Sequence record: OZ346212.1 | Source: a phage | Direction: 5' to 3' (one strand) | Length of the DNA: 64,000 bases | Notes under the pieces: generated by a model | The model's input: the letters and a program-made list of their open reading frames with translations, nothing else | What the model was told of the DNA's origin: nothing | Database searches by the model: none | Made by a program: the position numbers and the translations under genes | Shown here: in pieces, positions 363 to 51,731 of the stretch | Layout: every line of letters starts with the position of its first letter | Position numbering within the stretch: position 1 is the stretch's first letter

Positions 363-1049
363 ATGGCAGAGATTAAGTCGGATGTTAACCACATCCACAC
401 TCTGCCAGATTTTGTTCAGGGAGGTCTTGACTACCTGCCTGGAGATTTTCTGGCTGAGAAGGTTAATTTAGTCACATTCTTAACCGTATACCTTAAAAGG
501 TTGGAGGATGTTGATAAGATGCTGGTAGGTTTGGCTGAAGGAAGATTGCTTAACAATGCCAGCGGAAGATACCTTGACGAAGTTGGTAATCAACTTGGTA
601 TTCTTAGGAATGGACTTTCAGATGCTGATTTTCGTGCCACACTAATTATTCAGCAGGCCGCAGCATCAAGGGGCGGGACTCGCGAAGATGTCATCTCCAC
701 CTTGCGACAATTGTTCGGAAGAGACAATTTCGATACGTGGAAAGGAGACAACTTCAGGTTTGACATAAATATTAGAAAAACTTGCTTTGACATATTGCAG
801 TCTATCGATCAGATCTTAGATATGCTACCATTGCCTTGTCATTTGCGTCTTACAGAATCGCAAGGGCAAGCTTTTGGTTTTGAAGGGGACTCTACAGCTC
901 TTGGCTTCGGATCAGTATGGGAAGAAAACCAGTTTGGAGTTGGTGGACTGGCTACTTTGCTGTATGTTCCTGACGTAAGACCTGATTGGGACACCACAAC
1001 CATTTATTGTGAAAGTATTACAGTAAACGCAACTAGACAGGAGGGTTAA
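363..1049 (+). CDS. putative baseplate/tail structural protein (228 aa)
   Basis: ORF in structural operon, start 11 nt after previous stop, stop overlaps next start (TAATG). Confidence 0.6.
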   Translation: MAEIKSDVNHIHTLPDFVQGGLDYLPGDFLAEKVNLVTFLTVYLKRLEDVDKMLVGLAEGRLLNNASGRYLDEVGNQLGILRNGLSDADFRATLIIQQAAASRGGTREDVISTLRQLFGRDNFDTWKGDNFRFDINIRKTCFDILQSIDQILDMLPLPCHLRLTESQGQAFGFEGDSTALGFGSVWEENQFGVGGLATLLYVPDVRPDWDTTTIYCESITVNATRQEG

Positions 1050-2767
1050 TGGCAACAGCTGTTTTTAAACCTTACCGTGATTACTCTACAATGGCTGCAC
1101 GGTTTCATTACCGAACAGTTCAGGATACTGCCGTTCCTGGTAGGGATTATGATCATGTTGAGGGCGATGTAACTATCCCAGTTGGGGCAACCAGTATTGA
1201 GATCCCCGTGGAAATTGTTGACAAATTACCCAACAGGTTGCCAAGAAGCTTCTTTATGGAGTTTTCATCAAAATCTCAAGGGGTGATGATTGGAACACAA
1301 AGGGCGAAATGTACAATAGTTTCAGATGAGAATCTTGACAGGATATCTTGGGATACTGTTGAGGAGAGAATGTTTCACCCAAGATATTGGGTTACAACCA
1401 CTCAGCAGACTGAAAGTACCTGTATTGTTGCAGATAACAACTGTTGTATTAACCGTTTAGTGTCAAGAACATATGGAGGTATGGCTGGGTGCATTTGGGA
1501 AACAGTTGACAAGTATGACCATTTCGGTATTGGGTTTGATGATCACTATGAGATGAGAAACACCAAGCTTTGGTTCAGAATGTCAATAACCAACGCCAGC
1601 AACTTCTCCACTCCTGAAAAGATGATTATGACTGTAGACCTTGTTGATGGCACAATCATCTATGTTCCTTTAGCTCAATATGCTGTCAGCATCTCAGAGG
1701 ATAAGAATGTTGCAGAAATTCATATTGATTTTGAGGACTGCGTCGGGATGGACCAGAACAACAACATGATGGGTGTTGATCCTCGGCAGGTGAGAAGGAT
1801 TTTAATACCGCTTATGCCTAAAGACTGGGTAAGTAATAGCACAGACCCGAGAACGGAAAATGTAAAGTGTGAGTTGCGCCTAGATCTGCTTCAGCCAGAC
1901 ACAGGCTGGAAAATGATGCAACTTAACAATATCCAGGTGAGAGAGCACGATGTTGGGATCTGCACCGCATATGACGATATGTGGAACGTGTCTCCTTTAA
2001 GGGTGTTGAACAATATCAAGCGTCTGGGCTATACCGGAACCATAAACCATTATGTTGGTATGAGTCATTATTATGACTACACATGGTCAGGAACCCAATG
2101 GTCTATAAACAGAACAGGAGCGCTAAACGCTGCAGCTTATAAATGGCATGATGATTTTATGTACAATGCCAAACGACATAACTTCGACGTTATGCAATCT
2201 GTAAGTTTTGAGCTTTTCAGCGATGCCTGCCCGTTGGAATGGACCCAAAGAGACTGGAACGATAACTACGCTAAAACAGGGTATACACCTTGTAGCTACC
2301 TCCTGTCTCCAACCATTGAAGAGGGTATGAATTTCCTTACTGCAGTATTTAAGAATTTTGCATCAGCCGCTATGAGAAACAACCTGCCAGTGATTATGCA
2401 GGTTGGTGAACCGTGGTGGTGGTACAATACCGATACTCGTAGACCTTGTATTTATGATTACCCTACAAAACAGGCGTTTTATGATGAGACAGGCGAGTAT
2501 GCATTAGATATTGGGACTATTGACGATCCTAAAACTGGCGGTGTTTACGATAAGTATGTAGCATTTTGTCGTGGTAAGCTTGGCGCTCGTATTGCGGCTA
2601 TTTCAAAGGCAATAAAGGCACACGCTGCATCAGCTCAGATGACAGCTCTGCTGTTTTCCCAACCATTATGGAAACCGAGCTTACGCAAAAGCTTAACCTT
2701 GCTGACCAATATAAAAAGGAAGCAGGTGCTCTTGATTTCTTCTGCACCGAGTGCTACGATTGGGTGA
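1049..2767 (+). CDS. putative tail fiber / baseplate-attached protein (572 aa)
   Basis: Large ORF translationally coupled to upstream gene; N-terminal stretch DYDHVEGDVTIPVGATSIEIPVEIVD resembles a Calx-beta-like beta-sandwich motif; position equivalent to fiber gene after baseplate genes. Confidence 0.65.
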   Translation: MATAVFKPYRDYSTMAARFHYRTVQDTAVPGRDYDHVEGDVTIPVGATSIEIPVEIVDKLPNRLPRSFFMEFSSKSQGVMIGTQRAKCTIVSDENLDRISWDTVEERMFHPRYWVTTTQQTESTCIVADNNCCINRLVSRTYGGMAGCIWETVDKYDHFGIGFDDHYEMRNTKLWFRMSITNASNFSTPEKMIMTVDLVDGTIIYVPLAQYAVSISEDKNVAEIHIDFEDCVGMDQNNNMMGVDPRQVRRILIPLMPKDWVSNSTDPRTENVKCELRLDLLQPDTGWKMMQLNNIQVREHDVGICTAYDDMWNVSPLRVLNNIKRLGYTGTINHYVGMSHYYDYTWSGTQWSINRTGALNAAAYKWHDDFMYNAKRHNFDVMQSVSFELFSDACPLEWTQRDWNDNYAKTGYTPCSYLLSPTIEEGMNFLTAVFKNFASAAMRNNLPVIMQVGEPWWWYNTDTRRPCIYDYPTKQAFYDETGEYALDIGTIDDPKTGGVYDKYVAFCRGKLGARIAAISKAIKAHAASAQMTALLFSQPLWKPSLRKSLTLLTNIKRKQVLLISSAPSATIG

Positions 2768-3120
2768 TGCAGGGAGGTATTGAAAAGGCAAAAGAGTCTG
2801 TAAACATACCTATCGTTAAGTTAGGTTGGCAACCGTCTGAAATACAATACCTTGCAGGGTTCGTTCCTAGTAAAGAGCTTGCTCCGGTATATGGCTACGA
2901 CCCAACCAGGAATTACCAAGAATTTTTATGGAGATGTATCTGCGGAAACATGGCAACCATAGAGTATAGATACCCTGAGGTAAAACAGTATGTGTGGGCA
3001 TACCCGCAAGTAATGTCTGACAGCATCACTGTTACAGCCAGAGATTCTACCGTGCTTCATATGGGGCAGGTTGCTCTGAAAGGGTATGTAGAAGATGTTG
3101 TCCCTCCAGACTTCTCATAA
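2767..3120 (+). CDS. hypothetical structural-module protein (118 aa; alternative start 2668 gives 150 aa)
   Basis: ATG at 2767 overlaps the TGA of upstream gene (TGATG); track ORF 2668..3120 would overlap upstream gene by 100 nt. Confidence 0.5.
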   Translation: MQGGIEKAKESVNIPIVKLGWQPSEIQYLAGFVPSKELAPVYGYDPTRNYQEFLWRCICGNMATIEYRYPEVKQYVWAYPQVMSDSITVTARDSTVLHMGQVALKGYVEDVVPPDFS

Positions 3121-4783: not shown

Positions 4784-5098
4784 GTGGAGTTGGATTTGGC
4801 GGCATTGTACGGTATCTGCATGGGTACCGTTGTCCCGATCTGTGTATGGGCTTTCAACCAGTGGCACACCAAATGGAAAGACATTTCCAAGAGGTTGGAT
4901 GAGCTGGAGAAAGACCTCATCTTAGTGAAAAACAGTATGGTTACAAAAGATAAACTTGATTCCGTTATAGAGACCCGGTTAAGCAAGCTAGAGGCCGATA
5001 TTAACGACCTTAAGCAGGATGTCAGGACAGATGTCTCCGGCATCAGAGCCGATGTACAAAAGATTTTGCACATGCTCGTAGAGCATAGTAAAAGGTAA
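4784..5098 (+). CDS. hypothetical protein with N-terminal hydrophobic segment and coiled-coil (104 aa, GTG start)
   Basis: ORF preceded by GAGGAGG; start codon uncertain (GTG 4784 or TTG 4790). Confidence 0.5.
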   Translation: MELDLAALYGICMGTVVPICVWAFNQWHTKWKDISKRLDELEKDLILVKNSMVTKDKLDSVIETRLSKLEADINDLKQDVRTDVSGIRADVQKILHMLVEHSKR

Positions 5099-5125
5099 AC
5101 AAAGGTCAGAACGGAAAGGACTCCT

Positions 5126-5154: not shown

Positions 5155-5185
5155 TAGTCCTAAGGAATTTTCTCAGGAGAACGTG

Positions 5186-6229
5186 ATGACTAAACCAGTT
5201 ATCCCTCTTGATATTTGGGCCAATCAGGATGTTGTGCTTGAAAATACGGGAGAGTTGAATAAGTCTCAACCAAAAAAAGAAGAGAGATTGAAAGGTTGGG
5301 ATATGACACAAAGAGTGGCATGTGAAGTTGTTAACTTTGAACTTCACATGCTTTCTGCGTGGTTAAAGCATTTAACAGAAGATGTTGTCCCAGGATGGGA
5401 TAATAGATTCTTAAGGGTCACTAATAATCTAGCAGACGTTCCAGACAAAGCTGCTGCACGTCAAGTTCTCAATGTATACTCGCCTGAAGAAATGGACGAT
5501 CTGTATGTTGACAAGTCTGGAGACATAATGACTCAGACTCAAACTTTAGGCCTTCAAAGAATCGAGTTTGCATCTGCGTCAACAGACAATGCGGCAATAT
5601 ATACCACCATAACTCCAGACAAGACGACGATGGACTTCTGGATTATGGACAACATCGGTGGTGCTGACGGCACAGACCTTGATGATCCTTCTCACCAAAT
5701 AGACGGGTTCCGTTGGAGATTTCAACCTTCTGGTGGGCAGCCTGTGTTTTCGGCTATGAAGCTCAATGCTATAACTGCCAACCGTGCAAGACTGGCTATC
5801 CAAGGAAATCTTGAATGCAACGATGCAAAAAGTTCCTCTGCAAATGCCAATGCGGTCACGATACCAAGAGCCACTGTTAACGGACAACAATCCTGCGGAA
5901 GCGCTCAAATAGGTGGAAGAGTTGATTGTAACGATGAAACCGTTAGAGGCCAATATGCAACCGTTGGTGGAAGAAACGTGGTCCGCAGGGTAAACGGTAA
6001 CAGCGCAGACGGTAGTGGTAACCTTACTGTCCCTATGCCCAGTAGAGGGGTTGACGATGTAAGGATAGCGAACCGTTTCAAAACCACCTACAGAGAGTCA
6101 AGGGTCTACCCTGGACATGTGATGTGCTCTGGTAACTACGCTTATAAACACCCTTATCAAGGTGATTACTGGACAGGTGCTATCCAAAAACTTGTAAACG
6201 GTCAATGGATCACTATATCTTATGCTTAA
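5186..6229 (+). CDS. tail fiber / receptor-binding protein, paralog B (347 aa)
   Basis: ATG 5186 preferred over GTG 5183 by alignment with paralog A (MTKPVIPLDIW vs MSKPSFPLEIW); conserved C-terminus YWTGAIQKLVNGQWITISYA. Confidence 0.8.
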   Translation: MTKPVIPLDIWANQDVVLENTGELNKSQPKKEERLKGWDMTQRVACEVVNFELHMLSAWLKHLTEDVVPGWDNRFLRVTNNLADVPDKAAARQVLNVYSPEEMDDLYVDKSGDIMTQTQTLGLQRIEFASASTDNAAIYTTITPDKTTMDFWIMDNIGGADGTDLDDPSHQIDGFRWRFQPSGGQPVFSAMKLNAITANRARLAIQGNLECNDAKSSSANANAVTIPRATVNGQQSCGSAQIGGRVDCNDETVRGQYATVGGRNVVRRVNGNSADGSGNLTVPMPSRGVDDVRIANRFKTTYRESRVYPGHVMCSGNYAYKHPYQGDYWTGAIQKLVNGQWITISYA

Positions 6230-8310: not shown

Positions 8311-11300
8311 ATGCTTCCAATCCCTTTGCTAAAACTTGGTCGTCATTTCCTCGATAAGAGGGGTGGAATTAAGGAACTTGCTGTTCTGTCATACCCAATA
8401 GACAACAGTGATGGTACAAGCAACACAGTATCCTATGTAAATAGCTTAGCTATACTTTTTGATGATGGTCAGCTTAATATTACTGGCTATAACAAGTTCG
8501 GAGAGTGCCGCACTGGGGATCGTAGCCCTATAAACTATCCGAGCGAAACAGCCTGGAATGTTGATCATGTGTGGAGAGCAGACCGCGCGTTTGTGATCCG
8601 GACTTTTGATAACCAGTTTTTCTACATCGGCTGCACTGCAGGTCTTATCGGATCCACTGCGGCAGGCGGTAATGATGTTTGCGTAAACGAGTGGACACCA
8701 CTCCCAGAGCAGATTGTTAAAGGATTGCACCTTGACACCCACCCAGAACGCCTTATTGAGGTGATGGGCGGTATTAACAACACTGTCTGGGTTATTGCAG
8801 AGGCAGAAGGTACTGGCATACTTAACCTGTATGGATCTGGTAACAACACCTACGGATCTTTGCATGTAGATAAAAATCAGCATGCAACCCCTGTAAAGAT
8901 TGGTGAGACATCGGAAAATCCTGAAACAGGCCCTTGGAAAAACCCAAGCATCAACTGTGAGGTGCATGACAACTCTGTTATTTTCGGTGGTCCTAGGGGT
9001 TTCTGGATTGCTGGATACGACTTTCTGAGAAATAACAGTAGAAACGACCTTGTTTGGCCTCCTGTGCAGATTACTCGTAACGATTTGAGGGGCATTCCTG
9101 CAGATGAGGAGTGGAAAGGGTTTATGTGTGGTCCTAACGGGGCAGTAATTGCTACACAGAGGATGCATAGACCCGATGACCAGCAGCTTGTTAACGTATT
9201 TTATGGTCAAAACATTTGGGGAGATGATACATGGCGGGAACTGAATATCACCTACACCCATGAGGTAATGATGGCTCGTGGGTACGGCACAAGTGGCATT
9301 TTCTTCAATAATGGCACTAAGCAGTATCGTGGGTTCTCTCGCAACTTATGTAATGATATTGGTGCACAATCTGCAAACAATAGTCCTAGGGCCGATTTTA
9401 TCCACTATCAAGCTCTTGCTACAGCTAAATATGTTGAGCAACGCCTGCCAGTCAGCTGGACAGAGAGTGTTTATTTCCAAGGCATCCACAGAGAAGGTTT
9501 CTTAGGGACCTTTACTGTTGTTAATGGTAAACTTTGGTGGTCAGGTATCCCAAGGGGAAGTTTTACAGGCTCTAATAACCTGTTTGGCGGCAGACTTAAT
9601 AGTCAGGGGTTCACAGAGGTTCCTGAGAATTGGTATAAAAATGTCCCAGTAGACAGTTGGGGCGTTGATGATATTTTCGACGTTAATGGTGTTAGCAGTG
9701 TTAGCAATATCTACATTGGTGACACGGTCAAGATGAAATTGAAGCCTCAGCCAGAGGGAGCTACGTTCATCATTGACAAGATTGAACTGGTGAATGCTGC
9801 AGGTACGGTTGTTACAGATGCAAATTACCAATTCTCCACCAACTGGAACCACGGCGGGGCCAACGAAGTTGTTGTTACCCAGTATAACAGAAATGTTAAC
9901 AGACGTGGCCTGTACTCTGTAAAAATAACCTATCATGACAAGCATGGCACAGGCAGAACTCACACGACAAGGACTTTGAACTGGAACACCATAGTTCCTG
10001 CGTATCCGTCCAACGGCAAGTGGCATACCGTTGGTAGAAACAAGCAGTTCCATGTTAACGATACTGTATACTTTGGGCTGAATGGGACCCAGCCTGCAGT
10101 AGAAGGGGATACATCGTATATGGTCAGACTCCACAGAATGGATGCTGGATCAGTCACTTATGATGTGACCCAAGAGATCTACGATCAAAGACGCGCCACG
10201 TATGACAATATTGTGAAAACACAAGCCTTGTGGGAGTTCAATCCTAATGGCAAGGGTGGTAAAATGTTGCAGGTTAATGAGCAGAACGGAACGTCGTTGA
10301 CTGTTCACGAACACCCAGACCCTTGGCCTGATCCTGGAAAACCTCACCCGGGAGCTCGTACACTGAAAATTGTCAGCCATGATGCAGGATATTTCGGAAT
10401 ACGCTGGGAAGCTACAGTAAGATATGTCGACGGGACAACAAACAACATAGGGATTACACTTGGCGGCACTAGTGAAGATAGCTCGCTGAAAATTGCCTAC
10501 ACGCCCAGAGGTATCTCTATTGATAATATGGATGTTGTTCGCAATGGTTACGGCGATGTGAATGTCAAAGTTACTCTTGGCGAACATCTTGGTGGGGAAA
10601 GGATCATCATGTATGCCTTTGATCATGATCCACGCACCAATGGAACTTATGCAAATCAGGCATGGAGTTACCTGATAAATGCACCTGAGCCGAATACTAA
10701 AGAGTTCTACTATGGCATGAAGCGAGATGTGTGCAAGAAAACAGGAACACATGACTGGATTGCTATCTGCGTTAAAGATGAGCGCACAGCTTGGGATGAG
10801 CCTGTTAACAGATGGTTCATAGGTATTCCTACCAGAAGTGATAAGTATGTCGCAGAATATATTGTATGCATGGGCGGTACCAACCTAAACATGTGTTGGA
10901 ACGAAGATGTAAACAAATACTCTGATTATGACTATATGAGGGATTACTCTTGTAATTTGTGGTTTAACCAAACTACAGGTTACCCTCCAAGACAGGCGAG
11001 AGTAAACCCTGCAATCTTCACAGACACGCAGGTTTTCTTGACAAAACAGGCCAACGAGGTTCAGACCTTCAAGAATAAATACGATCCTAACAAGTGGTTC
11101 TACAACTGTTACGGCGCATTTTTCTGGGGACCTGGTGAGTTACCTGGTGGTGGATCTTGCTTGAATGAGGCAACTTACGCAAGTGACTACATCATGGGGC
11201 AGGTCAAGAAGTATAAGATAATCCCCGGTCCTGAGACTTTGGGCAATGCCGTTGACCCTTATATCATCATGACTGCACTGAGATCAAACATGGATGGGAC

Positions 11301-13947
11301 ATCCATGTCCATGCAAATTCCGGTAACAAACGGATACAAACGTGTTGTGATGATCATTAAGTGCGACCTGATAGGTAAACAAGTTCTTGCAGAAAACGGG
11401 ACATCCACACATCCTTTTGAGATCGCTCTGCACTATCAGTTTGCTGACTCACCTTTTGCAGGGGATAAGAGAATATCTGATACAGACGCACAGCGTTGTA
11501 AGAAAGTATTGTTGGGTGCAGGTTGGTGGTGGTATGAGTTTGATTTAACAGACAAATTCACCGACACGTCTAAAGTTGTAACAGGACTTCGTCTAGACCT
11601 TGGCGAGAACATGCACAAAGCTGTTTGTGATGGCACCTATGGTGACCCTACAATATACCTAAAATATGTTTCTTTTGAGCATCCGGAAGATGTTGTCTAC
11701 GGTCCAAAACTGAGATTGTTTGGCAGCTGGATTGCAAAAGATAGGGTAGGCATGGGTAAGAAGGTAAGAGGGTTCTTGGTTGATGCAGGAACAGAAGACA
11801 TGCTGGTTAATGCAGTATGGCCTGAATTACCTGGGACTCAGTGGGACAACTCAGCCAAATCTATAAACTGGTTTAACATTCATAGGGCCATGTGGACCAC
11901 TAACTGCTACTTGTGGAGAGAGCTTAACGATCAGGCCTTTGGATTCAGCGAGGGTAGAAGGATGGCGATCATTTGCTGGACAACACTGCAAAGATGTTAT
12001 GACCATGACTATGAGATTGGAGGCAGGGCATGGAAAAATATCAGGGATAGAATCATAACCAATTTTGCAGACGACAACGGTGGTGGAGCACATAACTTTG
12101 GCACAAGCCGACTCATCCATTTGAACGGATCCTCAGCCTACAAGAAAGAAGGTTACTCTGGGTCTATGATCGAGCGGGGTCTGGTGAAAGATGCTCGCGT
12201 ATTGATGGGCCAGCAACTTGCTGCCGCAGTAGGTCCCAGCGCAGTGCAGTCGGTTAAACCAGCGTGGTTCGATATTCCATTGTGGTCACCCGGAACACCG
12301 GGAACTGCTGCAATCAACCCTACCACTGGGGATCTGGAAATCTCCTGGGAAGACCTGAAGCAGGTCGGTGGTTGGGACAAAACAGGGTATCAGGTTCAAT
12401 GGTGGAGGGCTGACGGATCTTTAGCCGCTGATGAGTTTGTTAAGGACAATTTCTACACTATGTCCTCTGCAAAAGCACAGCAATTATTTGGTCAGGCAAC
12501 TCCGTCAACGATCACCATGTCTATGTGCTGTAAAGACAACAGGACTGGAGCTTTGGGGCCAAGGGTTGCTAAAGTTTTCTCAGGTATTAAATGGAATCTA
12601 CCTGTCCAAAGTATTTCATGGAAGCAAATAGGTGATAACAAGCTGCTGGTTACCCCTGCCTGTCAGTTCAACGCAACTCTTAACGTTGATCCTGCTGTTG
12701 CGGCAAACTCAGCTAAAGCTTCTGACTTCTCTGTGTCTAACACTGCTATGGCAGATGTGAGGAAGATTGACACGCTGAACGCCAGAATTACCTGTAAAAA
12801 CACTTATGGCACATTCCAAATCATCAACAACTTCACAGATGCTGATTCTAAGGTAGTGAGGACAGCAAGCCAGACTCTGAGTTTAGGAACTCTGGCCTAT
12901 GCGGCCCTGATCACCGAACAGTCGGCAACACTCCAAGGAGGTGGTGTAGGCAAGTCCATTACAACACCTGTGTGGAAGCCAAATGAGTGGGTTGTGTTTG
13001 ATTTGACTGTGGACTTCTCCAGCGATAATAACTGGACATGGGTAAGGAATTGTTTGTCACAGTTGATGGGCGGTCCAAGCTCCGTTAGTGATAGTCACGA
13101 CTCTACTGACCCGAGTGTGTTCCAGGTAGGTAAAACTCACCCAGAGACTGGAGAAACGTTGCCTGACAGGAAGTATGCTTTGGTTTGCATCTCTTACGGG
13201 AAGGCAGATGTCGCCTTCTCAGGGACACACACTTATAACGGAACCTACAACTTCTCAAGGAAGTATAGTCTCAAAGCAGGGAACATTATAGACGAGGTTG
13301 GTGCGCTGTATAATCCGGGCAACGGCATAGGGATTGTTGGTGGTAAACTGCAGATGCAGGAACCTTCTATTACCCCTTCCAACGTATCCGGGATTAGAAA
13401 GACTTGGGAAAGTAGTAATACCAACATTGCAACAGTGGATGCCACCACAGGACTGGTAACATTTAAAGCTACTGGGAATGTCACCATAAAGTTTGTAGTT
13501 ACTGATGATGTAGGGCGCAAAACGTCTTCAACATCTTTTACTGTCAAACAGATGGCACCACAGTGGAGAATGTGGATAGGTACAGCAACAAACGGGGCAT
13601 ACCCTAATCCGTCAGGTACTTCTGGTATGAAGACTTTCTCTACAAGCAAACCGATGGAGTACGGCAGCGGTCCTAAGGTAGGGCAGATGGTGTACTTTGG
13701 TGCGTATATTCCTGAAATTATAGGGCTTCCTAGAAGTCAGCTTCAGTTGCTGTTTGGGGCTGGTGTTGACGATCTTGCCACTTTCGGGTATAGCGACAAC
13801 ATCGAGGCTGCAAGGAGTTCAGGATGGGTAGGGTTCAGAATGGAGTCTGGAAAGGAAGGCAGGATTCTAGGGACAGCCTCTATAGGTGTTATGTTCCCTG
13901 GTGACCAGCAGTATCGTCTAGAAGCCTACGCAACCTTTTCTCGTTAA
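8311..13947 (+). CDS. giant multi-domain structural protein (1878 aa), putative tail fiber/adhesin with RCC1-like, FN3-like and Big_2-like segments
   Basis: Single uninterrupted ORF; N-terminal repeats (GYNKFGECRTGD, YGSGNNTYGSLHVD) resemble RCC1 propeller blades; near C-terminus ...IRKTWESSNTNIATVDATTGLVTFKATGNVTIKFVVTD matches the bacterial Ig-like group 2 pattern. Confidence 0.8.
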   Translation: MLPIPLLKLGRHFLDKRGGIKELAVLSYPIDNSDGTSNTVSYVNSLAILFDDGQLNITGYNKFGECRTGDRSPINYPSETAWNVDHVWRADRAFVIRTFDNQFFYIGCTAGLIGSTAAGGNDVCVNEWTPLPEQIVKGLHLDTHPERLIEVMGGINNTVWVIAEAEGTGILNLYGSGNNTYGSLHVDKNQHATPVKIGETSENPETGPWKNPSINCEVHDNSVIFGGPRGFWIAGYDFLRNNSRNDLVWPPVQITRNDLRGIPADEEWKGFMCGPNGAVIATQRMHRPDDQQLVNVFYGQNIWGDDTWRELNITYTHEVMMARGYGTSGIFFNNGTKQYRGFSRNLCNDIGAQSANNSPRADFIHYQALATAKYVEQRLPVSWTESVYFQGIHREGFLGTFTVVNGKLWWSGIPRGSFTGSNNLFGGRLNSQGFTEVPENWYKNVPVDSWGVDDIFDVNGVSSVSNIYIGDTVKMKLKPQPEGATFIIDKIELVNAAGTVVTDANYQFSTNWNHGGANEVVVTQYNRNVNRRGLYSVKITYHDKHGTGRTHTTRTLNWNTIVPAYPSNGKWHTVGRNKQFHVNDTVYFGLNGTQPAVEGDTSYMVRLHRMDAGSVTYDVTQEIYDQRRATYDNIVKTQALWEFNPNGKGGKMLQVNEQNGTSLTVHEHPDPWPDPGKPHPGARTLKIVSHDAGYFGIRWEATVRYVDGTTNNIGITLGGTSEDSSLKIAYTPRGISIDNMDVVRNGYGDVNVKVTLGEHLGGERIIMYAFDHDPRTNGTYANQAWSYLINAPEPNTKEFYYGMKRDVCKKTGTHDWIAICVKDERTAWDEPVNRWFIGIPTRSDKYVAEYIVCMGGTNLNMCWNEDVNKYSDYDYMRDYSCNLWFNQTTGYPPRQARVNPAIFTDTQVFLTKQANEVQTFKNKYDPNKWFYNCYGAFFWGPGELPGGGSCLNEATYASDYIMGQVKKYKIIPGPETLGNAVDPYIIMTALRSNMDGTSMSMQIPVTNGYKRVVMIIKCDLIGKQVLAENGTSTHPFEIALHYQFADSPFAGDKRISDTDAQRCKKVLLGAGWWWYEFDLTDKFTDTSKVVTGLRLDLGENMHKAVCDGTYGDPTIYLKYVSFEHPEDVVYGPKLRLFGSWIAKDRVGMGKKVRGFLVDAGTEDMLVNAVWPELPGTQWDNSAKSINWFNIHRAMWTTNCYLWRELNDQAFGFSEGRRMAIICWTTLQRCYDHDYEIGGRAWKNIRDRIITNFADDNGGGAHNFGTSRLIHLNGSSAYKKEGYSGSMIERGLVKDARVLMGQQLAAAVGPSAVQSVKPAWFDIPLWSPGTPGTAAINPTTGDLEISWEDLKQVGGWDKTGYQVQWWRADGSLAADEFVKDNFYTMSSAKAQQLFGQATPSTITMSMCCKDNRTGALGPRVAKVFSGIKWNLPVQSISWKQIGDNKLLVTPACQFNATLNVDPAVAANSAKASDFSVSNTAMADVRKIDTLNARITCKNTYGTFQIINNFTDADSKVVRTASQTLSLGTLAYAALITEQSATLQGGGVGKSITTPVWKPNEWVVFDLTVDFSSDNNWTWVRNCLSQLMGGPSSVSDSHDSTDPSVFQVGKTHPETGETLPDRKYALVCISYGKADVAFSGTHTYNGTYNFSRKYSLKAGNIIDEVGALYNPGNGIGIVGGKLQMQEPSITPSNVSGIRKTWESSNTNIATVDATTGLVTFKATGNVTIKFVVTDDVGRKTSSTSFTVKQMAPQWRMWIGTATNGAYPNPSGTSGMKTFSTSKPMEYGSGPKVGQMVYFGAYIPEIIGLPRSQLQLLFGAGVDDLATFGYSDNIEAARSSGWVGFRMESGKEGRILGTASIGVMFPGDQQYRLEAYATFSR

Positions 13948-13960
13948 CAAGGGGATAAAT

Positions 13961-25231: not shown

Positions 25232-25732
25232 GTGAAAATTAAGATCTTTGCTATTATTTTGAGCGCACTTTTATCGCTGCCTGTTGTTGCAGCACCAAAA
25301 CAAAAAGTATATCATACTTGCAAGCCCTCAGATACTAAGGAAAACATTCTGGCATGCAATATCTACAGGGAGGCTAGAGGGGATGGCACGATGGGTATGC
25401 TGGCATCAGGGTTTGCCACACTAAACAGGAAATCTCACCCCAAATACCCAGACACTATAAGAAAGATTGTCTACCAACCTAACCAGTTTTCGTGGACAAA
25501 CCACGGCAAAACTTTTAAGGTGACAGAAAAAGATTCATGGGATCACGCTAAAAGTCTTGCAAAGATGCTTCTAAAGGTCTATAATAACAACCATGTTGCA
25601 TACATGGCTATGGACATAACAGGTGGAGCAACACACTACCATACAACCAAAGTACGACCGAAATGGGCAAAAAAGATGCAGAGGACAGCTCAATTCGGGA
25701 GTCATATCTACTACAAGGAGCGCAATAAATGA
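25232..25732 (+). CDS. secreted SleB-like cell wall hydrolase (166 aa, GTG start)
   Basis: N-terminal signal-peptide-like segment (KIFAIILSALLSLPVVAAP); core NIYREARGDG...LNR...YPDTIRKIVYQPNQFSW matches the SleB-type lytic hydrolase pattern. Confidence 0.7.
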   Translation: MKIKIFAIILSALLSLPVVAAPKQKVYHTCKPSDTKENILACNIYREARGDGTMGMLASGFATLNRKSHPKYPDTIRKIVYQPNQFSWTNHGKTFKVTEKDSWDHAKSLAKMLLKVYNNNHVAYMAMDITGGATHYHTTKVRPKWAKKMQRTAQFGSHIYYKERNK

Positions 25733-26274
25733 TTGTAAACAGTAATGAAACTAAAGCAGTACTAACCGGAAATATGGAGGTCACCAGGGGCTCAATTTCT
25801 CTGAACAAAGAGACTTTTGGGCTAATCATTAAAGGGATTTACGAAGATAAGGTGCTGGCAAGCTGCCGTGAACCAATCTTCAATGCTGTGGACTCCCATG
25901 TTGAGTCTGGACGGGGTGATGTACCGATCATCATTCACTCTCCTACAGACCTTGAACCATACTTCTTTGTGCAGGACGTTGGATTGGGCATGTCGGAAGA
26001 GATGGTCCGCAACACTTTCATGAACCTCGGGGAGTCAACCAAGCGCAACAGCAACGCTCTGGTAGGTAATAAAGGTGTAGGTTCAAAGGCCCCGTTCAGC
26101 ATGGTGGACACTTTCGATGTGATCAGTGTGCCATACCAACACAACAGTGCTAAGTGCCGTGCATGCCGCTACGAAATAGTAGCAGCACCGGAATCACGCA
26201 AAGATGGCGATCCGATTGAATACGTAGTTGACCGTGATGGTAACATCATCGACATTATCTACGAGGAGGCGTAA
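25729..26274 (+). CDS. small GHKL-fold (HATPase_c-like) ATP-binding protein (181 aa)
   Basis: Bergerat-fold motifs in canonical order: N-box EPIFNAVDSH, G1 VQDVGLGM, G2 GNKGVGSKA; SD AAGGAG. Confidence 0.55.
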   Translation: MIVNSNETKAVLTGNMEVTRGSISLNKETFGLIIKGIYEDKVLASCREPIFNAVDSHVESGRGDVPIIIHSPTDLEPYFFVQDVGLGMSEEMVRNTFMNLGESTKRNSNALVGNKGVGSKAPFSMVDTFDVISVPYQHNSAKCRACRYEIVAAPESRKDGDPIEYVVDRDGNIIDIIYEEA

Positions 26275-33520: not shown

Positions 33521-35944
33521 ATGAGCATGTGGTCGTTCGACTTTGAGTCATCCGGTTTGCTGGAAGACCCAGATCTTTATTATCACTGCGGCCTGTTTAA
33601 AGAGCTGAATAAGAACCGTTTTATGCTGTTCCTTCCTCTAAATGACCGCACACACTACTCCGAGGAGGATATAGAAAAGGCTAAGAACTTCATTCTGGCA
33701 AAGAAAACTCTTTATAAAGATTTTGAAGTTCGCATAGCAGATTTTTCAGAGTTGGAAGGTTGGCTTACAGGAAATTCTGACTGGTCACCAACAGCTTTGA
33801 ACTGCCATAACTGCTACAGTTATGACTTTATGCTGATGGAAAGATTATCTGGTATTCATTTTGATATGTTCCGTGATCCTAAGTGTATGGGGACTATCAA
33901 CGATCACCAGGTTAACCTGTTTGATACGTTGGCGATGAGCCGAATCTTGTGGCCTGATCGCCCTTTACCAAAAGGTTGTCCGGACTCTGTATTCAACCCG
34001 GTTACTAAGAAAATGCAGCCTGTTGGTCCTCACGGCCTTATGGCATGGGGCTACGCCCTTGGTAACCAGAAAGTTCAAATTGATGACTGGCGCGATCTTC
34101 CGTTATGGAAGTATGTGGATCGTGTATTTGAGGACGTTATCATCCAGGAGCTGCTCTGGAAAGAGCTGGTAGCGGAATCAAAAGGTGTATTCTACGGCAA
34201 ATCTGACATGCAGAACTTTATGTACGATCCTGCCAAAGAGAAGCCGAAAGGGTTCAAGAAGATCACCTGGAAGAACGCATTACGTCGAGGCATGTTGCAG
34301 CACTTCCTGATGGAGCTGCAGGCCCGTCAGGGTGTATACTTCGACATAGATGGGGCTATTGCTTTACGTGACCGCTGCGATGCGTGGATGAAAGAGATCG
34401 CTGATCGTGTTGAACCACAACTGCCTTTAAAAGAGCTGTCAATGTCTCAGCGGCCCAAGTTCCCTGAAAAGCCGTTTAACCAAGATGGGACAATCTCTAA
34501 TAATGGTTGGAAATGGTTAAAAGATAAGCTTGGCTATCCTGTGGACATGAGTGCTTTAGAGTTCAAAGCCCCACCTAAGCGAGCATTTACCTCTACAGGA
34601 GATGTCAGTAAGATGGGGATAAAATGGTGTGAAGAGATGGGCTGCAAAGACCACGATAAGATGGCTGATTTCTTGAGAGGTTATATTAAGGGCACCTCCA
34701 CACCACAACCTTTACCTAAAGAGCTGATGGATCAGGCAATAAGCGATCTGCAACAGAAGCGAATGCCTGACTGCAAGATACCTATGAAAATCAGCAATCA
34801 GGACGACATTAAGCGATACCTGATCAGTGCTGGTTGGCTTCCGACAATGTGGAGAACTAAGGATGTAACTAAGGACAGCAAGAAGAAAGCTCTACCTGAT
34901 GCAGATGTTGATGCACGAGTATATGCATACATGGACGAGCTTTTAGAGTCAGAGTATTGTGACCTAATTATCAACTTCTGGAACAAAACTGATGCTAAGT
35001 TTCAGACAACAGTGCACAAGTTCCGAAGCTTTCCTAACTCCGAAAGGATTAAAAAGGAAGTGTTCGGGAAAATACGCAGAAAAGCCAGGGCACTTATTAC
35101 TTCTCCGCAACTGAAAGATACGTTTGGACACCTATGTCCGAATCTTGAAAAATTGAACGGAGAGATGGCTAAAGATATCGTCTTGTGGTTATCATTGCGA
35201 AACCGCAGATCGGTCCTTGATCCAATCAAGGAGGATAAGGTTGATACTGGTCTTCTTAATCACCCACGTTTGAAGATTGACCATAAGCTTCCTGCTAAAA
35301 GCTCTGGATTAACAAACACTTCCCGACAGAAACACAGTATTTGTGCAAACATGCCTAAACCATCTCCTAAAGTGGTTATGGGTAAAGAGATGCGTAGCTT
35401 GTGGGGTGTTCCTCCTGGATACTTTGAGATCGGTATTGACGGGTCCAACTTAGAGCAGCTTATCGGGGCTTGGGGTGCCTTTGAGTTCGACAACGGCTTG
35501 TACTATGATGTTGTAAGTAACGGGGACGCACACCAAAACAATGCTGAGGCATATACAAAAGTAGCAGGCAGAGAGGTGTCTCGTAACGACGGTAAACCTA
35601 TCACGTATGGGGTTATGTACGGGGCACAAAAAGATAAAGTTGCAGATATGCTGGATATCTCCCCAGAGTTGGGGCAAAGGGTGATCGATGCACTTTGGGA
35701 TGCCAACCCAGGTCTTAAGGGGCGCAAAGAGGATCTGGAGAAATTCTGGGAAGCAACAGGTAAGAAGTTTATCTACTCTTTTGATGGTCATGCTATCTGG
35801 ACCCGATCTAAACACTCTTTACTTAATGCATACCAACAAAATGGCGGCGCATCGTTGTGTGACTTAGTTGGGATACTCATGCACCATCAAATGGTGAAGC
35901 GTGGGTGGTACGATGAAGGTGTTCGTCGTATTATCTATTACCAT
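33521..35944 (+). CDS. DNA polymerase, family A, exon 1 (exo domain through motif B)
   Basis: Exo I SFDFES; motif A ...EIGIDGSNLEQL...; motif B ...RNDGKPITYGVMYGA...; the ORF reaches a stop 2 codons after the proposed 5' splice site and lacks motif C. Confidence 0.8.
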
Positions 35945-36786
35945 AAATAACATTGTGGCTTCGTGCAGTGATGCACGTCGAAAACCTCTTTAATTGACGG
36001 GAAGGCTAAGTTGACTTTTACACCTAAACATGGTAAAAGCTCAATATGCTAATCCGCAGCGAAGACTAAAGGGGTGTAGTTAAAATGGCTAGATCAGTTG
36101 AGTATCACGGATATACCGTGTTTGATGATGGAACAATACCTTTATCGAAACGTGATCATACAACAATGTTTTGTTTTGATAATGGTCGAGGTTACCTTTG
36201 CGTAACCATGTTCATCGAGGGGAAGCAGTGCACAAAAGGTGTCCACCACTTGGTTGCTGAATGCTTTGTATCAAACCCTGATCCTGAAAGGCTCACATGG
36301 GTGAACCATAAGGACGGAAACAAATACAACAATGCATACTGGAACCTTGAATGGACCACCCCTGGTGGAAATATCAAACACGCTTATGATAATGACCTCA
36401 GAGTAAGGCCAGTCGGTGAGTATAATGCCAACGCTGTACTGACCGAGGATGAGGTAACGGAGATTTGCGAACTGTTACAAAGTGGTTTACGACAATGCGA
36501 GATTAGGGATCTTGGGTATCCTTATGAGACGGTCAGAGCCATAAAGCAAAGAAGACAGTGGAAACATATCTCTAAAAACTACACCTGGTAGTAACGTTCA
36601 GAGACTATCGAAAGCATAGCGCCAACATAAATTGGTGCGAAGAAGCGAGTAGAGTAGACCAGCAAGTGCGGTCGAAATGGGAGGTGCCTTGGTAACAAGG
36701 TAGTGAGATAGTCCGATCCATACAGGAAACTGTATGGCTGTGCACGTAATGGTGCGGGGTAGCTTAACGACCTACCTGAACTATTG
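35945..36786 (+). ncRNA. group I self-splicing intron (842 nt) interrupting the DNA polymerase gene
   Basis: Core elements P aattgacgggaagg (35992), Q aatccgcagcgaag (36051), R gttcagagactatcg (36596), S gagatagtccgatcc (36705); exon ends in U pairing with intron GUGG; intron ends in G; removal restores RIIYYH-DEYQLQV (motif C). Confidence 0.75.
36085..36591 (+). CDS. HNH homing endonuclease encoded within the intron (168 aa)
   Basis: HNH_3-like motif VHHLVAECF...VNHKDGNKYNNAYWNLEWTT; lies between Q and R elements (P6-loop position). Confidence 0.8.
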   Translation: MARSVEYHGYTVFDDGTIPLSKRDHTTMFCFDNGRGYLCVTMFIEGKQCTKGVHHLVAECFVSNPDPERLTWVNHKDGNKYNNAYWNLEWTTPGGNIKHAYDNDLRVRPVGEYNANAVLTEDEVTEICELLQSGLRQCEIRDLGYPYETVRAIKQRRQWKHISKNYTW

Positions 36787-37140
36787 GATGAGTACCAACT
36801 TCAAGTCCCTGACACACCGAAGTATAAGACTGTGTACACCTTCGACACAATCGAAGAACTGGAAGCATTTAAGGCAGAGCAGGAGGCCAAACTTCATGTG
36901 TTCGACGGTCATAAGTACAAAAAGGCACGCAAGGATGAGGACGGAAACGAAGTGGTTGACAGAGACGGAAACACGGTGTACGATCCTATCCTGAACGATG
37001 ACGGAAAGCTTGAACTTATCTGGAGCCCTGTGGGTGAAATGGTGGTGCATTGCTTCTGGCAAGCTTCTAAAATGATGGGCGTCCCGTTCCAGATCACGGG
37101 TGAATACCTGTGTGGTCGTAATTGGGGTGATTGTCACTAA
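36787..37140 (+). CDS. DNA polymerase, family A, exon 2 (motif C to C-terminus)
   Basis: Begins DEYQLQV in frame with exon 1; no plausible independent start or RBS. Confidence 0.7.
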   Translation, partial: DEYQLQVPDTPKYKTVYTFDTIEELEAFKAEQEAKLHVFDGHKYKKARKDEDGNEVVDRDGNTVYDPILNDDGKLELIWSPVGEMVVHCFWQASKMMGVPFQITGEYLCGRNWGDCH

Positions 37141-51707: not shown

Positions 51708-51717
51708 GGACGTGTCA

Positions 51718-51731
51718 GGGGGGGGGGGGGG
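51718..51731 (+). repeat. homopolymeric G14 tract between promoter and RBS of gene 51771
   Basis: 14 consecutive G, then a, gg, cccc. Confidence 0.9.

Follow-up and report, generated by a model that had tools for sequence, protein, structure and literature searches.

We found that the two overlapping open reading frames at positions 1049 to 3120 (ORF1 and ORF2) are very probably a single gene, conserved in rV5-like phages and encoding 690 aa, that has been broken by the loss of one T, with no recoding involved. This level of confidence belongs to the core of the reading (one broken gene, no recoding) and to neither of the two possible origins of the missing T, and we found no evidence that contradicts that core. 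The window, which is the whole stretch of 64,000 nucleotides that was analyzed, comes from an rV5-like E. coli myophage (Vequintavirus).

An intact gene in relatives and a private one-base deletion

The features of the locus are as follows.

1049 to 2767, plus strand: ORF1, 572 aa, ending ...MTALLFSQPLWKPSLRKSLTLLTNIKRKQVLLISSAPSATIG
2668 to 3120, plus strand: ORF2, 150 aa, starting METELTQKLNLADQYKKEAGALDFF
1049 to 2656, plus strand: native-frame N-terminal part, codons 1-536 of the 690-aa gene; the PHROG 6040 match ends at residue 536
2654 to 2657, plus strand: run of four T residues, site of the private 1-nt deletion; 8/8 directly aligned relatives read five T residues (GCTG TTTTT CCC)
2657 to 2767, plus strand: out-of-frame ORF1 tail, 36 codons (SQPLWKPSLRKSLTLLTNIKRKQVLLISSAPSATIG) and a TGA stop; no profile match past residue 536
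2656 to 3120, plus strand: native-frame C-terminal part, intact-protein residues 537-690; holds the final third of the TIM barrel, with ExYDW and GFVP
2765 to 2769, plus strand: TGATG, in which the ORF1 stop (TGA, 2765-2767) overlaps an ATG (2767-2769) of the ORF2 frame

ORF1 and ORF2 share 100 nt, with ORF2 read in the -1 frame relative to ORF1. The ORF2 frame is free of stops from 2578 to beyond the ORF1 stop, and so a shift at any point in 2578..2767 would fuse the two. The original prediction had described about 35 odd residues at the C terminus of ORF1, a downstream ORF open in another frame, and a frameshift near the junction that would join the two into one longer fiber. All three observations were borne out: exactly 36 aberrant residues follow the point, residue 536, at which homology stops; the second frame is as described above; and insertion of one T restores a stop-free ORF of 690 aa, with Pfam and PHROG profiles that span both halves. 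The shift had been placed at 2660..2700, and while a break in the frame is indeed present, it lies just upstream, in the T-run at 2654-2657. Across the junction, the truncated product would read LLF-SQPLWKPSLR; the peptide diagnostic of this product is LLFSQPLWKPSLR, and the junction peptide of the intact protein is LLFFPTIMETELTQK.

Across its first 26 kb, the window is 99.8% identical to phage naswa, and the same locus is annotated as one 2073-nt CDS encoding 690 aa in naswa, rV5_ev146, and CarlMeissner. Over the 2072-nt locus, nucleotide identity to the best 30 relatives is 98.8-99.8%, and the sole difference in length between the gene and its relatives is T4 versus T5 at 2654. Alignment to homologs in related phages, the check proposed with the original prediction, showed a single-piece gene with T5 and one in-frame 690-aa ORF in all eight relatives inspected. 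A search with an 81-nt junction query found the window allele at 100% identity in none of 107 related records, and among the matches listed, each exceeded the query segment that it covered by 1 nt (the census of the T-run in the 107 records combines identity bands with the listed rows, and the eight relatives were aligned directly). In IMG/VR, the T4 allele had no matches and the T5 allele had one.

The surroundings of the gene are the same as in relatives, with baseplate genes upstream and a short tail fiber gene and chaperone gene downstream. Its GenBank names vary (lateral tail fiber, baseplate protein, and several others), and they include labels that make the name "fiber" used in the original prediction acceptable. 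The only private substitution in the window's copy of the gene is E273K. We considered E273K as a sign of special selection and rejected this idea, as seven private SNPs in 4.6 kb amount to an ordinary background.

Homology and selection across the junction

The intact protein contains a Calx-beta domain (aa 17-91), an NCTSP_N domain (aa 108-283), and a PF23845 TIM barrel (aa 299-658), of which the first two thirds (aa 299-536) lie in ORF1. The predicted gene product is a lateral tail fiber/baseplate protein with Calx-beta, NCTSP_N, and N4-Gp64-like TIM-barrel domains. In an intact homolog, PF23845 gives a single match (profile positions 2-346 of 348, 269.8 bits). In the window, ORF1 matches positions 2-237 (221 bits) and ORF2 matches positions 250-346 (34.6 bits; the gathering cut-off is 27 bits). 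The window's copy is therefore a disrupted member of this family, broken at the T-run between profile positions 237 and 250, and these coordinates put the break inside the barrel. PHROG 6040 divides in the same way, with residues 1-536 of ORF1 covering profile positions 1-528 and ORF2 covering positions 533-671. In both the Pfam and the PHROG profile, ORF1 and ORF2 cover neighboring stretches that do not overlap, and so the pattern is not due to chance.

Residues 358-659 of the intact protein align without a break across the site to PDB 9lc0_M, "Gp64" (E = 2e-24). A tblastn search returned 329 records, and sampled matches with identities down to 27-43% run over the junction as a single piece; the only exceptions among those sampled, Njord and uligo (26-27% identity), align in two pieces. 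The L-x-F-x-P-x-I motif at the junction and the ExYDW and GFVP motifs that follow it are invariant in five divergent homologs. A protein search with ORF2 yielded four word-sharing candidates and no scoring match, a result that is uninformative given the 329 phage records found by tblastn.

Purifying selection in the overlap acts on the ORF2 frame alone, as judged from variation among the relatives compared: when read in the ORF2 frame, 10/10 variable sites are synonymous, and when read in the frame of the ORF1 tail, 0/9 varying codons are synonymous, all nine being amino-acid-changing. The gene as a whole is under strong purifying selection. On this pattern of substitution, we regard the ORF1 tail as out-of-frame translation and not as selected coding sequence.

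Recoding, overlapping genes, and a two-piece protein

We weighed three other explanations of the arrangement. A -1 ribosomal frameshift or transcriptional slippage near the T-run could set the ratio of 572-aa and ~690-aa products made from the T4 template. The geometry permits recoding, as the -1 frame, that of ORF2, stays open from 2578 until past the ORF1 stop, and phage tail genes are a classic home of programmed -1 frameshifts (the tail assembly chaperone G/GT). However, the two-frame arrangement is private to the window, being present in 0/107 relatives, and all eight of those inspected are in-frame. In the stretch in which a frameshift could join the ORFs, there is no X_XXY_YYZ heptamer in the phase of ORF1; the only XXXYYYZ sequence, TTTCCCA at 2655, is out of phase; and the longest homopolymer is A5 at 2713. 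Transcriptional slippage usually needs a run of about 8-9 nt, and the T-run itself, at T4, is far below this. No stimulatory structure was evident by pseudoknot-free folding, in which the RNA of positions 2660-2760 has a predicted energy of -18.4 kcal/mol, compared with a mean of -17.6 for shuffled sequences (z = -0.26). The frame of the ORF1 tail is also under no purifying selection. We consider programmed recoding, which the original prediction had raised, extremely improbable.

That prediction had also allowed that the genes simply overlap, so that independent expression would yield a fiber of 572 aa and an accessory protein of 150 (or 117) aa. Both ORFs are present and both have an ATG start, and TGATG at 2765-2769 resembles translational-coupling junctions. 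However, there is no Shine-Dalgarno sequence upstream of the ATG at 2668 (CAGCTCTGCTGTTTTCCCAACCATT directly followed by ATG); the genuine starts at 1049 and 3133 are preceded by AGGAGG and AGGAGA. In relatives, the ATG at 2668 is an internal codon, Met541 of the intact 690-aa protein, and ORF2 corresponds to the last third, at the C terminus, of one TIM-barrel domain; ORF1 and ORF2 are contiguous within that one Pfam domain and within one PHROG. A stand-alone gene at the position of ORF2 is annotated in none of the relatives inspected, and the chance that two separate genes are present here seems to us close to negligible. The 118-aa product that had been suggested for the downstream gene has its ATG, at 2767-2769, but comprises 117 aa without the stop, equivalent to native residues 574-690.

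A variant of these ideas accepts that the deletion is real and supposes that the 572-aa fragment pairs with a C-terminal fragment made by reinitiation to give a working TIM barrel. Complementation between the parts of split (beta/alpha)8 barrels is sometimes possible, and a 150-aa product from the ATG at 2668 would comprise native residues 541-690, with only FPTI (537-540) absent. This start has no ribosome-binding site, however, and reinitiation at TGATG would give residues 574-690 only, so that residues 537-573, including the invariant ExYDW, would be in neither piece. Moreover, the barrel would contain the junk tail of 36 residues, and a two-piece protein has a precedent in no relative. We judge this possibility highly unlikely, and we retain the reading of one gene broken by one lost T.

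Origin of the missing T, its consequences, and comparison with known systems

The original prediction had offered a sequencing indel as one cause of the shift. The indel stands, but a real mutation is an equally possible source. We put the chance that the missing T is a real mutation that became fixed in the stock used for sequencing at about even, and the chance that it is a homopolymer sequencing or assembly error, with the phage making a normal 690-aa protein, at a little short of even. The absence of any other private frameshift in the window, as assessed over 142 segments of naswa ORFs, each 90 aa or longer, favors a real mutation, as do the numbers of homopolymer runs of at least six (11) and at least seven (1) nucleotides in the first 26 kb, which are the same as in naswa. 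The idea that the window is riddled with homopolymer errors was rejected, as one private frame break was the only one among these segments. Elsewhere, the window carries a private in-frame rIIA-rIIB deletion of 2.65 kb, across a microhomology of 7-16 nt, with a 181-aa fusion product. In our judgment, this is not something that an assembler would create, and the genome thus carries at least one genuine lesion. Neither the exact 181-aa fusion product nor the exact 572-aa product of ORF1 turned up in public assemblies. On the side of error, loss of a single base from a homopolymer is a classic fault of several sequencing platforms, and the gene is under strong purifying selection. The proposed ECA target of the fiber is also important even on K-12 (PMC8594841). 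A precedent for a real mutation is phage lambda PaPa, in which, according to the passage of PMC12617516 that cites Hendrix & Duda (1992), a frameshift in stf in a laboratory stock abolishes the side tail fiber and leaves the phage viable. A literature search on Vequintavirus and frameshifts yielded only frameshifts in host receptors and nothing on this gene.

If the T is truly absent from the phage DNA, translation would give 536 native residues and 36 junk residues and then stop. The barrel would lack its last third, which, as inferred from the domain boundaries, would inactivate the enzymatic/receptor-binding domain; the N-terminal domains might remain able to assemble. Little or none of the C-terminal part would be produced, given that the ATG at 2668 lacks a Shine-Dalgarno sequence; at most, weak termination-reinitiation at TGATG (2765-2769) might produce the 117-aa fragment.

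The gene appears to be the conserved fiber that was proposed by the BASEL study as an ECA-directed deacetylase fiber. We base the link to the BASEL S5F fiber on the "glycosidase and deacetylase domains" in the CarlMeissner annotation and on the PDB chain named "Gp64"; the glycan deacetylase/hydrolase activity of the fiber is a Phyre2 prediction, and its targeting of ECA is proposed (PMC8594841). The appropriate annotation of the locus is a single frameshifted gene, in place of a fiber of 572 aa plus a hypothetical protein of 150 aa, and the locus does not belong among candidate recoding sites. Should the missing T be real, the phage would be a ready-made mutant lacking the putative catalytic barrel of the proposed ECA-recognizing receptor-binding protein of the Vequintavirinae, and its adsorption and wecB dependence, compared with those of naswa, would directly test the ECA-fiber proposal.

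Private one-base frameshifts are present in different fiber genes of the two phages: T5 to T4 in the Gp64-like fiber of the window, and G4 to G3 in an 1878-aa Ig-like fiber of naswa. A homopolymer indel at 10594 was considered as a second break in the window and rejected, as the window has the majority, intact allele there and naswa has the split one. It is conceivable, but in our view very unlikely, that short homopolymers in Vequintavirus lateral-fiber genes act as recurrent on/off switches, so that stocks vary in the blades of their "Swiss army knife" of fibers. In a more modest version of this idea, the phage might be a viable natural knockout of a conserved, putatively ECA-directed fiber.

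Among known systems, the lambda tail assembly chaperone G/GT resembles this locus in that two ORFs overlap within a cluster of tail genes and the downstream one is in the -1 frame. It differs in that the window has no conserved arrangement, no in-phase heptamer, and no selected upstream tail, and the gene families are unrelated. The stf gene of lambda PaPa is a parallel in kind, as the lateral fiber gene of the window differs from its intact ancestral form by an indel of one base that leaves two ORFs; in lambda, the mutation and its phenotype were established experimentally, whereas the lost T of the window is read from a sequence record. The likeness to phage N4 Gp64, the PDB chain 9lc0_M named "Gp64", and PF23845 (TIM-barrel_NCTSP) lies in the TIM-barrel domain. 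Unlike Gp64, the Vequintavirus protein has additional N-terminal Calx-beta and NCTSP_N domains and belongs to a contractile-tailed phage, and its enzymatic activity is putative. The Vequintavirus orthologs naswa_62 (QHR68876.1), bas48_0034 (QXV76600.1; annotated in CarlMeissner as "lateral tail fiber with glycosidase and deacetylase domains"), and VVG93818.1 (rV5_ev146) have the same neighbors and the same set of domains, and compared with them, the window's copy is one T short and split into 572 and 150 aa, with E273K in addition.

Two reading frames and one conserved protein

The two overlapping open reading frames claimed in the original prediction are present, and their sequences match those quoted there:

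1049..2767, + strand: ORF1, 572 aa
2668..3120, + strand: ORF2, 150 aa

They overlap by 100 nt. The ORF2 frame is -1 relative to ORF1 and has no stop from 2578 onward; a shift anywhere in 2578 to 2767 would therefore fuse the two. Megablast matched the locus, which lies between baseplate genes on one side and short-tail-fiber/chaperone genes on the other, to 117 phage records, nearly all E. coli Vequintavirus (rV5-like myophages). The best match was phage naswa (MN850595; 99.8%), and the first 26 kb of the window are 99.85% identical to naswa. At this locus, 16-21 "Campylobacter phage" GenBank records (MG0656xx, e.g., MG065647.1; host given as C. jejuni; UNVERIFIED in at least one case) share roughly 95-99% identity with E. 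coli Vequintavirus genomes; probably the host label is wrong or the phages were grown on contaminating E. coli.

Homology runs across the break. ORF1 matches positions 2-237 of the 348-position Pfam profile PF23845 (TIM-barrel_NCTSP) and ORF2 matches positions 250-346, and the intact ortholog gives one match to positions 2-346 (269.8 bits). Residues 1-536 of ORF1 correspond to positions 1-528 of PHROG 6040 and ORF2 to positions 533-671; homology thus ends at the frameshift codon and picks up in the other frame. Residues 358-659 of the intact protein align to PDB 9lc0 chain M ("Gp64") in one stretch that crosses the site (...aqmtallffptime..teltqklnla... vs AQATLLFFTPQIMSpaSELTGRLNF). Tblastn of the fiber protein matched 329 phage records. 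Among those sampled, matches at 27-43% identity (Phapecoctavirus-like phages, Avunavirus, jumbo phage Goslar, and Acinetobacter and N4-like phages) were one unbroken piece that included the junction residues, and only Njord and uligo (26-27%) matched in two pieces. Five divergent homologs, when aligned, all keep L-x-F-x-P-x-I at the junction and, further downstream, ExYDW and GFVP without variation. Judged by homology, ORF1 and ORF2 are one protein, not two.

Within the overlap, all 10 sites that vary among nine Vequintavirus sequences are third codon positions in the intact (ORF2) frame, where the changes are synonymous; in the frame of the ORF1 tail all nine varying codons alter the amino acid. 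This pattern indicates that the 36-residue tail was never a protein under selection.

The protein is named inconsistently in the records: tail fiber, baseplate protein with EPS depolymerase activity, capsid and scaffold protein, or lateral tail fiber with glycosidase and deacetylase domains. From the annotation of phage CarlMeissner and the "Gp64" match, the locus appears to encode the putative ECA fiber, which the BASEL study proposed to be an ECA-directed deacetylase fiber.

A missing T at the junction

Naswa, rV5_ev146, and CarlMeissner each have a single CDS of 2073 nt (690 aa) at this locus, and the top megablast matches each cover 2073 nt vs the 2072 nt of the window query. The only length difference in the alignment is GCTG-TTTT-CCC in the window (run at 2654-2657) vs TTTTT in the relatives; five T are also found in five further relatives that differ by up to 92 nt. 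An 81-nt query centered on the run was identical at 100% to none of 107 records, and among the matches listed each was one base longer than the query stretch it covered. In IMG/VR, the four-T allele had no exact match and the five-T allele had one. Addition of one T to the window restores a stop-free 690-aa ORF. Downstream of the break, the fiber gene has no substitution private to the window; the event is therefore either very recent or an artefact, and this finding favors neither a real mutation nor a record error. Upstream, a private GAG -> AAG change at 1865 (E273K; E in 8/8 aligned relatives) is one of seven private SNPs in the first 4.6 kb and is therefore probably background variation.

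The original prediction was right that a frameshift joins the two ORFs and that the tail is out of frame, but we reject a programmed shift, one of the options it raised. Among the related records only this genome has the two-frame layout, and we found no in-phase X_XXY_YYZ heptamer in the ORF1 frame. TTTCCCA at 2655, the sole XXXYYYZ candidate in the fusable zone, is out of phase, and a slip of P-site tRNA-Phe from UUU back to GUU would leave a mismatch in the first codon position. The longest homopolymer in this zone is A5, and four T are far below the length for transcriptional slippage. Folding of the next 100 nt is no more stable than that of shuffled sequence (z = -0.26). Nor is a simple overlap of two genes supported: ATG 2668 corresponds to an internal methionine (Met541) in the relatives and lacks a Shine-Dalgarno sequence, which is present at starts 1049 (AGGAGG) and 3133 (AGGAGA). 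The locus holds a known conserved gene whose copy here is split by an ordinary frameshift.

Mutation or record error

We give a real mutation an even chance and an error in the record a little under that; everything else together is very improbable. Loss of one base from a homopolymer is a classic artefact, and the high conservation of the fiber gene, which is probably important, also counts for error. On the other side, the first 26 kb of window and naswa have the same counts of runs of at least 6 (11) and at least 7 (1), so an error would have hit a short run and spared longer ones. A second private lesion, a 2.65-kb in-frame rIIA-rIIB deletion that in our judgement is not an assembler product, also counts for a real mutation. 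Otherwise the window looks clean: across 142 naswa ORF segments of 90 aa or longer, the frame is discordant at just two further places:

10594: G3 (naswa, broken) vs G4 (window); window allele common to 45 records
35935-36736: intron insertion in the window

At the first, the window has a single 1878-aa Ig-like giant lateral fiber (8311-13947), which in the naswa record is split into naswa_69 and naswa_70 (naswa positions 8314-10677 and 10719-13949). Since 45 other records carry the intact allele, naswa has its own private homopolymer frameshift. At the second, an insert of ~840 nt splits the DNA polymerase gene, relative to naswa_105, between residues 812 and 813. The insert matches the group I intron model RF00028 over its full length, at 39.1 bits (E = 3.7e-8) against a gathering score of 50, which it does not reach, and carries a 168-aa ORF (36085-36591) with a weak, sub-threshold HNH_3 match.

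33521-35950 and 36784-37140: polymerase exons

Two further differences from naswa were noted. A run of ~14 G at about 51717-51730 (naswa, GGGGGGCGGTG) is one of only two homopolymers of at least 7 in 64 kb; the small-gene/intergenic stretch around it (46.2-52.4 kb) differs from naswa in many other homopolymer lengths as well. At 5125 there is a 2-nt indel (GGACTCC--TCTTG vs GGACTCCGTTCTTG). It falls between ORFs 4784-5098 and 5183-6229, apparently in an intergenic stretch, and shortly precedes the second short-tail-fiber paralog, whose annotated start differs (window GTG 5183 vs naswa).

Consequences and precedents

If the deletion is real, the product would comprise 536 native and 36 junk residues, and the (beta/alpha)8 barrel would be without profile positions 238-348 or so, a loss that should abolish the domain. 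The ORF1 TGA (2765-2767) overlaps an ATG in the ORF2 frame (2767-2769) as TGATG, so weak reinitiation could yield a 117-aa fragment (native 574-690); residues 537-573, including ExYDW, would then be absent from both products. In practice the annotation should be corrected, and a real mutation would make this phage a naturally occurring knock-out mutant for the putative ECA fiber.

Laboratory lambda (PaPa), with a frameshift in the side-fiber gene stf, provides a precedent (PMC12617516). The rII lesion maps as follows:

25729-26274: rIIA'-'rIIB fusion ORF, 181 aa; junction about 26101-26131

Here ~2.65 kb present in 120/120 related records is missing, and rIIA residues 1-134 continue in frame into the C-terminal ~47 residues of rIIB at a short imperfect microhomology (GATGTGATCAGTGTGC / GATGTGGTTAGTGTGC). 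The phage has the appearance of a genuine rII deletion mutant, and the fusion recalls that of phage T4 r1589.
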